In this document: positions 16,636 through 24,821 of the stretch, piece by piece
Layout of the letters: the number at the start of each line of letters is the position of its first letter
Numbering within the stretch: the first letter of the stretch is position 1
IMG/VR virus record: IMGVR_UViG_2663763159_000003
Span: 1 to 32,675 of that record
Origin: a virus
Lineage: Duplodnaviria > Heunggongvirae > Uroviricota > Caudoviricetes
Length of the DNA stretch: 32,675 nucleotides
Direction: 5' to 3' (one strand)
Notes under the pieces: model-generated
Told to the model about the DNA's origin: nothing
The model's input: only the letters and a program-made list of their open reading frames with translations
Database searches by the model: none
Made by a program: the position numbers and the translations under genes

Positions 16636-16711
16636 TGGTGCTGGTTAACGGACTTGAACCGCTACCCATTCGCTTACAAGGCGACCGCTCTACCATTGGA
16701 GCTAAACCAGC
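16636..16711 (-). tRNA. tRNA-Thr(UGU)-like, 76 nt with encoded CCA
   Basis: Hand-folded cloverleaf: acceptor GCUGGUU/AACCAGC, D-arm GCUC-CAAUGGUA-GAGC, anticodon loop CUUGUAA, T-arm AGCGG-UUCAAGU-CCGUU. Confidence 0.6.
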
Positions 16712-16716
16712 ATATT

Positions 16717-16791
16717 TGGCGGGACAGCGTGGACTCGAACCACGATAAGAAGGTTAACAGCCTTCCGTAATGACCTTTATACGACTGACCC
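16717..16791 (-). tRNA. tRNA-Asn(GUU)-like, 75 nt, deviant D-arm (possibly degenerate)
   Basis: Anticodon arm GAAGG-CUGUUAA-CCUUC, T-arm CGUGG-UUCGAGU-CCACG, acceptor with one U-U mismatch, CCA encoded. Confidence 0.45.
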
Positions 16792-23822: not shown

Positions 23823-24095
23823 ATGTCCAGAAAAACAGAATTTAAAGGCACCGCAGCTTCTCGCCGTAGAGCTCGTCGTGCAAACCTGCAAAGTCAGGAG
23901 GCGATCAGCTCTGACAAACTACACAGGCCAACCCCTTCACGAGTGGTCTTACAATGCAAACGCAAACCAGTAATGAGAGCAGAAGTAATAACACTGACAA
24001 CGTTGACCAGAAAATATGAAGGCTCAACTTGTCTTCCAAATGTAGCCATTTACGCGGCAGGCTACAGGAAATCCAAACAGCTGACAGCAAGATGA
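23823..24095 (+). CDS. N-like antiterminator with arginine-rich motif
   Basis: Start at ATG 23823 with GGGAGG RBS; N-terminal GTAASRRRARRANLQ arginine-rich motif; position after pL/nutL. Confidence 0.7.
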   Translation: MSRKTEFKGTAASRRRARRANLQSQEAISSDKLHRPTPSRVVLQCKRKPVMRAEVITLTTLTRKYEGSTCLPNVAIYAAGYRKSKQLTAR

Positions 24096-24153
24096 CTTGT
24101 GTTGGTCGCCAGAAAATGAAATTAGGCAGCAAACCACTTATTTGAGGTGAGAT

Positions 24154-24240
24154 ATGGAAGAAGAATTTGAAGAGTTCGAAGAGCATCCTCAGGATGTGAT
24201 GGAACAATACCAGGACTATCCGTATGACTGCGACTATTGA
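24154..24240 (+). CDS. Small acidic 28-aa ORF (λ orf28-like position)
   Basis: ATG with GAGGTGAG RBS; overlaps ral start; too short to judge. Confidence 0.3.
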   Translation: MEEEFEEFEEHPQDVMEQYQDYPYDCDY

Positions 24241-24424
24241 TAAGAATCAATGGTGTGGACAATTCAAGCGATGCAATGGATGCAAGCTGCAATCGGAATG
24301 CATGGTTAAGCCTGAAGAAATGTTTCCTGTAATGGAAGATGGGAAATATGTCGATAAATGGGCAATACGAACGACGGCAATGATTGCCAGAGAACTTGGT
24401 AAACAGAACAACAAAGCTGCCTGA
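24224..24424 (+). CDS. ral: Restriction alleviation protein Ral
   Basis: 66 aa, matches λ Ral as recalled. Confidence 0.8.
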   Translation: MTATIDKNQWCGQFKRCNGCKLQSECMVKPEEMFPVMEDGKYVDKWAIRTTAMIARELGKQNNKAA

Positions 24425-24470
24425 TAGTGGCCTTTATTTTTGGCATAAATAACAGAATAAACACTGCACT

Positions 24471-24498
24471 GTGTATTCATTCCAATGAGTGAATACAC
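24471..24498. repeat. Perfect 9-bp inverted repeat gtgtattca-N10-tgaatacac
   Basis: Seen directly; non-coding region between ral and cIII. Confidence 0.6.
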
Positions 24499-24560
24499 GG
24501 AGCAATGTCGCTCGTAACTAAACAGGAGCCGACTTGTTCTGATTATTGGAAATCTTCTTT

Positions 24561-24585
24561 GCCCTCCAATGTGAGGGCCTTTTTA
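24561..24585 (+). terminator. Rho-independent terminator between ral and cIII (tL2-like position)
   Basis: gccctccaatgtgagggc followed by cttttt. Confidence 0.5.
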
Positions 24586-24650
24586 TATGCATACCAATAA
24601 CGCTTCACTCGAGGCGTTTTCGTTATGCAATCAAACAGAAGGAGCATCCT

Positions 24651-24821
24651 ATGCAACAGTTCGCTATTGCAGGGGCGGCATCGGTTCGCCCTTTCAACCC
24701 GATTTTATCGGTACAGCATTCACGAAAAAACATTTTAACCGGAGCAGACTTTAAACAACCAAGAATGAAAAGTTTGCTCGAAAAGCTTTGGGATATTTTG
24801 AAACAACAAGGCCGTCCATGA
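24651..24821 (+). CDS. cIII: CIII-like protein
   Basis: 56 aa starting MQQFAIAGA..., resembling the λ CIII N-terminus MQYAIAGW; AAGGAG RBS. Confidence 0.6.
   Translation: MQQFAIAGAASVRPFNPILSVQHSRKNILTGADFKQPRMKSLLEKLWDILKQQGRP

Follow-up and report, generated by a model that had tools for sequence, protein, structure and literature searches.

The subject of this work is the interval between the genes ral and cIII in a 32,675-nucleotide stretch of DNA, hereafter the window, which corresponds to positions 1 to 32,675 of the virus record IMGVR_UViG_2663763159_000003 of IMG/VR (Caudoviricetes). A first-pass annotation, made from the letters alone, had described positions 24425–24650 as structured and as comprising about 225 bp without a convincing gene. 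The former statement was sustained, the RNA of 24425–24660 folding with a z-score of -5.9 relative to shuffled sequences; the latter was not, since the PreS (LPR1) small-RNA (sRNA) gene sits there. We consider it highly probable that the region is the lambdoid PreS cassette, composed of that gene with its terminator tL2a, a 5' flanking hairpin, and a further hairpin in the cIII leader; a PreS gene with tL2a is in itself already known, and ordinary for lambdoid phages. The features of the locus are the following:

24224–24424, + strand: ral, the upstream gene, in a pL-type early-left operon (PF11058 Ral, E = 8.9e-48; phrog_1055)
24461–24508, + strand: 5' hairpin, an interrupted RNA hairpin lying 5' of the PreS start and overlapping it (from fold and covariation)
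24500–24585, + strand: PreS (LPR1) sRNA gene, 86 nt (88 in lambda), with a 5' stem-loop at 24500–24539, then a partly single-stranded seed, then the terminator
24535–24561, + strand: seed region, complementary to the dnaN leader and covering the mutations M1 (CTG) and M2 (GAA) and the 18-nt seed deletion of the lambda work cited below
24561–24584, + strand: terminator tL2a, the Hfq-type 3' module of PreS (from scan, fold, and annotation in relatives)
24585–24589, strand not applicable: ea10-less junction, where the ral–ea10 spacer abuts the ea10–cIII spacer (from a two-piece alignment to lambda and phage 21)
24589–24628, + strand: cIII leader hairpin, with outer GCATA/TATGC and inner AACGCTTC-ACTC-GAGGCGTT at 24599–24618, then TT (z-score of -3.6)
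24640–24821, + strand: cIII ribosome-binding site (RBS) and gene; AGGAG at 24640–24644, ATG at 24651, cIII at 24651–24821 with 56 amino acids (phrog_550 CIII, E = 1e-22)

The PreS gene and its terminator

By RIL-seq during lambda infection, Silverman, Nashef, Bruner, Noy, and Melamed (bioRxiv 10.1101/2024.10.31.621285) found an Hfq-enriched sRNA "between ea10 and ral", LPR1, which they renamed PreS and whose GC-rich hairpin and poly-U tail "corresponds to ... tL2a". According to the same preprint, that RNA has its 3' end at tL2a and is about 88 nt long, accompanied by a processed, stronger form of about 68 nt, and belongs to the lytic cycle only, being seen within 10 min of induction, after derepression, and not in lysogens. 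PreS activates dnaN by opening the RBS of that gene and represses alaS, both of which effects were proven by compensatory mutations, and the deletion of either the seed or the full gene lowers phage DNA replication and brings the spontaneous phage yield down 2- to 4-fold in an Hfq-dependent manner (bioRxiv 10.1101/2024.10.31.621285).

The window shares with lambda the locus after ral, the strand, the sequence, the tL2a terminator, and the dnaN complementarity. We set the ends of PreS by the cloning and T7 primers of the preprint (GAGCAATGTCGCTCGTAACT... to ...CCTCCAGTGTGAGGGCGATTTTTTA / ...GAGGGCGATTTTTTA), and the resulting +1, the G at 24500, agrees with the numbering given there for the alaS duplex, in which nucleotides 42–56 of LPR1 read GAUUAUUGGAAAUCU. 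Between those ends 84 of the 88 aligned columns are identical to lambda (95.5%) with one 2-nt gap, values that lie within the limits by which the preprint recognizes an LPR1 homolog (identity of 92% or more, no more than 3 gaps); there is no difference in the first 69 nt, which take in the whole seed, and the 166-nt region is 97.0% identical. PreS is present in a single copy in the window. The differences from lambda lie in the terminator, where the window has an A for the lambda G in the loop and GC-C-UUUUU for GC-GA-UUUUUU after the stem, and in the downstream neighbor, which is the cIII leader here and ea10 in lambda. A search of Rfam returned only two tRNAs that reached the gathering score in the window and, at a permissive threshold, nothing better than E = 0.43 in 24350–24750.

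The segment 24534–24552, TGTTCTGATTATTGGAA, is exactly the lambda sequence, the nucleotides that were mutated in lambda being defined by the primers P838/P839, P888/P889, and P970/P971. Two blocks of the seed region are perfectly complementary to the dnaN leader of Escherichia coli MG1655: the 11 nt at 24535–24545 to -27..-17, and the 12 nt at 24550–24561 to -47..-36. The duplex of the seed region with dnaN was calculated at -32.3 kcal/mol versus -10.7 +/- 2.8 kcal/mol for shuffles, with 0 of 500 as good; these exact-block and seed-region analyses replaced a full-length RNAduplex of PreS with 120 nt of dnaN, which proved to be an over-extended artefact. Hfq binding, lytic expression, and the regulation of dnaN and alaS were demonstrated in lambda and are predicted for the present phage.

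The terminator hairpin that the first-pass annotation had placed at 24561..24585 was recovered by our scan and is annotated as a terminator in relatives, namely in the records of phage 21, mEpX1, and Sf6, the last of which reads "homology to phage lambda; tL2A". The element consists of GCCCTC-CAATGT-GAGGGC at 24561–24578, whose stem of 6 bp (24561–24566/24573–24578) contains 5 G-C pairs, followed by a C and by TTTTT at 24580–24584, and therefore ends in CUUUUU as RNA. Among the relatives the stem is either invariant or compatibly changed—where GAGGGC has become GGGGGC, a G.U pair remains on the + strand—and the loop and the length of the T-run vary. Between 23500 and 25500 there are 6 terminator-like sites versus 1.9 +/- 1.2 in shuffles; one of them, a weak site at the ral stop (24416–24431), was dropped, having no stable fold (z-score of +0.7).

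That scan also found a second terminator-like hairpin, at 24599–24618, which had not been listed before and which forms the inner part of the cIII leader hairpin. The latter always stands directly upstream of cIII, in lambda and in the HK-type phages as well as in the P22-like epsilon34, and exhibits compensatory variants, CGCTTC/GAGGCG being replaced by TGCTTC/GAGGCA at 12 loci and by CACTTC/GAGGTG at one. With respect to the lambda tL2 cluster, window positions 24599–24620 are homologous to lambda ~33,512–33,491, a place that matches the tL2b coordinate of the annotated lambda sequence (33,494). The terminator at 24561–24584 is homologous in turn to lambda ~33,951–33,926, which is tL2a according to both bioRxiv 10.1101/2024.10.31.621285 and the Sf6 record. 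Unlike those of lambda, the two terminators of the window are only 38 nt apart, because ea10 is absent, and the tL2b-like one has a U-run of just 4 T. The AGGAG at 24640–24644 before the ATG at 24651 confirms the cIII RBS that had been placed after the terminator hairpin.

Regarding the gene that is missing from this place, the first-pass annotation had named the lambda sieB, placing that gene between ral and cIII. In the lambda record NC_001416 the order is N (- strand), sieB (34482–35036, + strand), orf28, ral, ea10 (33536–33904), and cIII, so that sieB lies between N and orf28/ral, on the strand opposite to those genes. The window is indeed without sieB; the interval relevant to that absence is the one between N and ral, and what is missing between ral and cIII is ea10, because the lambda order puts ea10 there and sieB between N and ral. 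Only 58 nt (24096–24153) separate the stop of the N-like gene from orf28/ral, leaving no sieB, as in phage 21, whereas lambda and HK140 carry sieB in that interval. In a BLAST search against phage records, lambda, phage 21, and many others aligned to the region in two pieces, the first extending from the ral end to the terminator T-run (98% identity with phage 21) and the second beginning at GCATACCAATAACGC, which is the lambda ea10–cIII spacer; between the two pieces lambda has the 369-bp ea10 together with the ea10 RBS. Among 114 viral contigs, retrieved with a pattern that held the seed only, the ea10-less arrangement was found in 48 and ea10 was present in 44; the ea10-less layout is thus a common variant. 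Upstream of ral lie an orf28 homolog and an N-type antiterminator (PF25694), and the N-like gene, orf28, ral, PreS, cIII, and recT are all on the + strand of the window.

The 5' hairpin and the distribution of the cassette

The perfect 9-bp inverted repeat with a 10-nt spacer that had been reported upstream of the terminator is there, GTGTATTCA at 24471–24479 and TGAATACAC at 24490–24498 being reverse complements. Inverted repeats that are perfect over at least 9 bp and have a loop of 3–12 nt arose in 34 of 5000 dinucleotide-preserving shuffles of 24425–24650, and only 4 perfect repeats of at least 9 bp were counted in the whole 32.7-kb window (the others being 31183–31194/31207–31218, with 12-bp arms, 501–509/520–528, and 14466–14474/14478–14486). 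The 9 bp form the core of a longer repeat, with 22-nt arms at 24461–24482/24487–24508 that are 82% complementary around a 4-nt loop, and as + strand RNA this hairpin folds at -24.6 kcal/mol (z-score of -5.2), with 0 of 200 shuffles folding as well. The upper stem, 24469–24482/24487–24500, comprises 14 pairs, including 2 G.U, closed by the loop CAAT (24483–24486); an A.A mismatch (24468/24501) divides that stem from a lower one which makes use of PreS nucleotides 3–9, and the +1 of PreS (24500) is the last nucleotide of the upper stem. As compared with the versions in Stx phages (GAATAAGCACTGTG...), the window has CACTG tandemly doubled at 24462–24471, which duplication changes the upstream bases used in the lower stem.

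To compare the hairpin among relatives we used 124 loci, retrieved with a pattern holding the seed only. A 5' hairpin with a 4-nt loop that ends 0–2 nt before the +1 was present in all 42 distinct upstream sequences of those loci. Most of these sequences carry the stem of the window, and a minority a second allele, alt1 (ATAGCAGATT-TRCG-AGTCTGCTAT); a third allele, alt2 (AATGACCATT-TTAAT-AGTGGTCATT), occurs in ST104 and epsilon34. The three alleles are non-homologous in sequence, but occupy the same place and keep the pairing: of the outer eight pairs, 8, 6, and 5 have both partners changed in the three pairwise comparisons, and none has a change in one partner only. Common to all three are the inner AUU/AGU pairs, one of which is a U.G wobble (on the opposite strand it would become an A.C mismatch), and the GCAC...GAGC base with its A.A mismatch at +2.

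In a 14-sequence alignment 92.9% of the cells were paired in the proposed structure versus 28–40% when the 3' partners were slid, and 8 of the 14 hairpin pairs changed on both sides, giving a covariation score of 0.407 versus 0.19 in shuffles (0 of 500). The share of paired cells listed for the 5' hairpin is 93.9%. The unpaired cells belong to two alt2 rows only, which MAFFT had shifted by one column, and the P22-type terminator was misaligned likewise; the formal pair counts consequently understate the pairing, and those stems were counted by hand in the script. Further alleles, sought by scans with the GCAC flank, turned out to be point variants only. The repeat, when looked at among relatives, is therefore conserved, in structure more than in sequence, and the conservation of structure, position, and strand while the sequence varies argues for a hairpin that acts at the RNA level and not as a protein operator. 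Of the two roles that had been proposed for the repeat, protein-binding site or RNA element, the second is supported by the kept pairing and the strand-specific G.U pairs, and the first is disfavored by the replaced half-sites and the changed spacing. We regard these allele observations as modestly new.

As to its distribution, the PreS cassette occurs in 331 phage records, nearly all at 95–99% identity, and in 2239 of 5426 complete E. coli genomes, where RefSeq leaves it unannotated. Upstream it is flanked by at least 12 different genes and downstream by at least 6 contexts, the homology stopping right after the T-run; in many relatives the hairpin begins 1–2 nt past the stop codon of whichever gene precedes. 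The cassette is thus widespread and mobile. Two exceptions were noticed: at one locus the alt1 hairpin is followed by unrelated sequence with no PreS, and at another PreS is broken inside the terminator stem. A scan of assembly contigs with the hairpin gave mostly contaminating lambda DNA and added no diversity: the lambda hairpin was present in low-coverage contigs, some of ~48.4–48.5 kb, from Shewanella, Pseudomonas, Pseudoxanthomonas, Bradyrhizobium, Arthrobacter, and other assemblies, which contigs are most likely lambda contamination of those assemblies.

The alt1 pattern was found at 96 loci. In about one third of these the first ~22 nt are the same and a diverged body follows (GAGCAATATCGCTCGTAACC...), in which both the seed and the terminator differ. 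By BLAST this body belongs to P22, L, ST104, epsilon34, and other Salmonella phages, in which it is unannotated. The P22-type PreS-like RNAs, in the coordinates of the stretches compared, are:

P22, 528–630: P22-type PreS-like RNA
ST104, 404–505: P22-type PreS-like RNA
epsilon34, 404–505: P22-type PreS-like RNA
one more locus, 3538–3647, - strand: P22-type PreS-like RNA

At least 40 nt of these RNAs are complementary to the 3' end of dnaA and the leader of dnaN in E. coli, at -32 to -35 kcal/mol versus -12 to -14 kcal/mol for shuffles (0 of 500), and in one helix an A-U pair is switched to G-C, all of which suggests a wider PreS family that would include the P22 type. The lambda-type and the P22-type bodies, with 33–45 nt complementary to the host dnaA 3' end and dnaN leader, are like antisense copies of that sequence; PreS possibly originated through the capture of host sequence in antisense, the complementarity having been compared with the E. 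coli leader. This homolog, too, is a modestly new observation.

Formation of the PreS 5' end

Since PreS appears only after derepression and no credible promoter was found for it, its 5' end would have to be cut from the pL transcript; and because the base of the hairpin coincides with that end in three different sequence versions, the hairpin would be the obvious determinant of the cut. We therefore lean, if only slightly, toward the 5' hairpin as a determinant of processing, marking the site where the PreS 5' end arises, and of stability, capping the upstream mRNA. As the nuclease, RNase III is a tentative candidate, suggested by analogy and on balance less probable than not. The sites of the E. 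coli enzyme prefer WSSW in vivo, that is, a paired S-S flanked by W (PMC6212723). The AGCA at 24501–24504, pairing with the TGCA at 24465–24468 beside the mismatch, fits that motif, with a chance match expected at about 1 in 16 positions. When the hairpin is set against an RNase III substrate of ~22 bp, the window has 22 positions that are 82% complementary, and the alt alleles consist of an 11-bp upper stem plus an interrupted lower stem.

The course of events that we propose would begin early in the lytic cycle with transcripts that start at the pL-type promoter and cross the N-like gene, orf28, and ral before entering the region, where some of the polymerases would stop at tL2a (24561–24584) to give an RNA with a GC hairpin and an Hfq-binding U-tail. 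An endonuclease would then cut at the base of the long hairpin (24461–24508), creating a 5' end at ~24500 and releasing an RNA of ~86 nt, and a further trimming—in lambda to ~68 nt—would remove the 5' arm of the first stem-loop and free the seed. With Hfq, the seed at 24535–24561 would pair with the host dnaN leader and open the RBS, which action would result in more sliding clamp and better replication of the phage DNA; the same RNA would repress alaS. The upstream fragment would retain the hairpin, which would shield the 3' end of the ral mRNA from exonucleases, and those polymerases that read through, including the N-modified ones, would meet the second hairpin (24589–24628) in the cIII leader, after which cIII would be translated. 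In its most general and quite speculative form, which we hold to be improbable rather than probable, the proposal is that the hairpin and the invariant GAGCAATRTCGCTCGTAAC junction constitute a conserved cassette through which a family of sRNAs, encoded in the early-left operons of lambdoid and P22-like phages, would mature, and in which the stem would be freely swappable and the sRNA, derived from captured host sequence, would be released by a structure-directed nuclease such as RNase III.

A number of points weigh against our main reading, that of a PreS cassette whose 5' end is cut at the hairpin. The minimum-energy fold of the precursor has the upper hairpin and the PreS 5' stem-loop side by side, the two competing for the nucleotides of the lower stem, and because that stem-loop outcompetes the lower stem in the predicted fold, the 22-position helix of a classical RNase III substrate may not form; moreover, the upper stems of alt1 and alt2 have 11 bp only. 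The three alleles represent perhaps two replacement events and not many independent compensatory changes. The 5' end of lambda PreS is taken here from primer design and northern sizes in a preprint and not from 5'-end mapping, and the preprint (bioRxiv 10.1101/2024.10.31.621285) names no hairpin, RNase III, RNase E, or promoter for LPR1 and is silent on the origin of the 5' end. The U-run of the window has 5 U versus 6 in lambda, which shortening could somewhat weaken termination and Hfq binding. For the present phage, finally, the evidence is that of its sequence, the PreS experiments having all been carried out in lambda. Searches of the literature for processing sites, of RNase III or otherwise, in the pL operon of lambda and for later work on PreS biogenesis yielded nothing usable; HnrS, the subject of a PLoS Pathogens paper, is a different prophage sRNA.

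The silence of the preprint on the 5' end leaves room for PreS to be a primary transcript from a promoter of its own inside the hairpin, in which circumstance the hairpin would have another role or none, and the +1 is indeed a G located 6 nt past GTGAAT (3/6 to TATAAT), with TGCACT 18 nt further upstream. These hexamers, however, give only 6/12 consensus matches and lack the A at position 2 of the -10; the promoter scan of 24425–24650 reports nothing; the putative -10 lies within the variable 3' arm and is lost in alt1 and alt2; and the appearance of the lambda RNA only after derepression, and not in lysogens, fits pL read-through. We accordingly judge an own promoter unlikely.

Less likely still is that the block is a mere boundary sequence for the swapping of modules, with tL2a as a plain operon terminator and the RNA functionless. 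The Sf6 record marks exactly this block "bsq4; boundary sequence", the homology gives way abruptly, upstream and downstream, to many different genes, and the 95–99% identity is unusually uniform. A patch of homology would nevertheless leave unexplained the covariation in the stem, as well as the Hfq binding, the compensatory-mutation proof for dnaN and alaS, and the 2- to 4-fold lower yield of the deletions (bioRxiv 10.1101/2024.10.31.621285); furthermore, the P22-type body has diverged to ~65–70% identity, yet more than 40 nt of it are still complementary to the dnaN leader. A boundary role is in any event compatible with a functional PreS, since a functional RNA gene can double as a recombination linker. 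The sequences designated bsq in Sf6 resemble the present locus—bsq4 covers the hairpin and PreS, and the same sharp mosaic breakpoints occur here—and differ from it in the reading: that annotation assigns no RNA function, whereas we now read the block as an sRNA gene with a structured 5' flank.

Very improbable, in our estimation, is a DNA operator for a dimeric protein, controlling for example a PreS or cIII promoter. The palindrome is perfect, with 9-bp half-sites, and its location at -29..-2 relative to the PreS +1 is typical of operators; but the same PreS follows three unrelated pairs of half-sites whose centers are spaced by ~20, 18, and 19 bp, which no single protein could read, and the main allele, which is that of both lambda and phage 21, does not track its neighbors, at least 12 different genes preceding it. 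In addition, the pairing continues across G.U positions, which would be mismatched both in DNA and on the - strand, the promoter scan is empty in the interval, and the three alleles have no -10 hexamer in common.

Equally improbable is that the region codes for a small protein, either the 31-amino-acid ATG open reading frame (ORF) at 24505–24600, which is open in the window and, with 29 amino acids, in lambda, or the 91-amino-acid TTG ORF whose counterpart is labeled "putative cIII" in the mEpX1 record: the 31-residue product, with its ATG inside PreS and its frame crossing the terminator, matches no PHROG or Pfam family, the Shine–Dalgarno-like GGAG stands just 2 nt ahead of that ATG, the ATG is ATA in all P22-type homologs and in at least one lambda-type sequence, the C-terminus is altered by 2–3-nt loop indels and by differing downstream contexts, the substitutions among relatives are about equally non-synonymous and synonymous, and the longer ORF, rejected already by the first-pass annotation, is an artefact, because its match to the CIII family starts only at residue 36. 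A coding frame conserved in the relatives was looked for, and none was found. In the mEpX1 record (JQ182727) it is a 276-nt TTG ORF, at 724–999 of the stretch compared, that runs through PreS and tL2a and is called "putative cIII protein", the same artefact as the ORF of the window.

Related systems and minor observations

Among known systems, DicF of the Qin prophage and KilS of the Rac prophage resemble PreS in being sRNAs of an early-left-type operon in lambdoid prophages. DicF, which binds Hfq, is released from a polycistronic transcript through cleavage by RNase III and by RNase E. KilS, located upstream of kilR in the early-left operon of the MG1655 Rac prophage (7406–7503 of the stretch compared, - strand), is a positional analog of PreS. 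Both differ from PreS in having other targets and no sequence similarity, for which latter reason KilS was rejected as a homolog; RalA of Rac was likewise rejected, being antisense to rcbA and in a different location.

A second likeness is to the RNase III hairpins of phage early mRNAs—those of the T7 R1.1 type, and the lambda N-leader and sib. In the single-cut sites of such mRNAs there is an upper stem and an internal mismatch, and the upstream RNA keeps the hairpin as a 3' cap. The window likewise has an interrupted intercistronic hairpin of ~22 positions, whose internal mismatch falls at the start of the downstream RNA; it differs from the T7 R1.1 type in that the lower stem is short and competes with the PreS 5' stem-loop, two of the three alleles have 11-bp upper stems, and the cleavage is putative.

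The PreS block, which is carried by ~40% of the complete E. coli genomes and by hundreds of phage records, is at present left blank there, or called "terminator" or "boundary sequence", or wrongly absorbed in a long "cIII" ORF; its proper annotation is that of the PreS sRNA gene. On PreS itself nothing new comes from the window; the comparative data, for their part, provide testable points on its excision from the pL transcript, and a P22-like homolog with dnaN complementarity would extend beyond lambda the idea of a phage sRNA that boosts the host sliding clamp.

Within PreS, the sequence at 24509–24517, CGCTCGTAA, matches at 8 of 9 positions the lambda boxA, CGCTCTTAA, with a chance expectation of ~0.05 in the region; no boxB-like hairpin follows. 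This boxA-like sequence sits in the sole block that is conserved between the lambda-type and the P22-type PreS. Farther upstream, in a frame other than that of the N-like gene (23823–24095), positions 24092–24145 encode MTCVGRQKMKLGSKPLI*, which is the C-terminus of the phage 21 N (...GVTCVGRQKIKLGSKPLI*) and appears to be a remnant that marks a mosaic junction within the 3' end of N. The two tRNA genes of the window are located at 16639–16711 and 16720–16791, on the - strand (Rfam tRNA, 61 and 55 bits).

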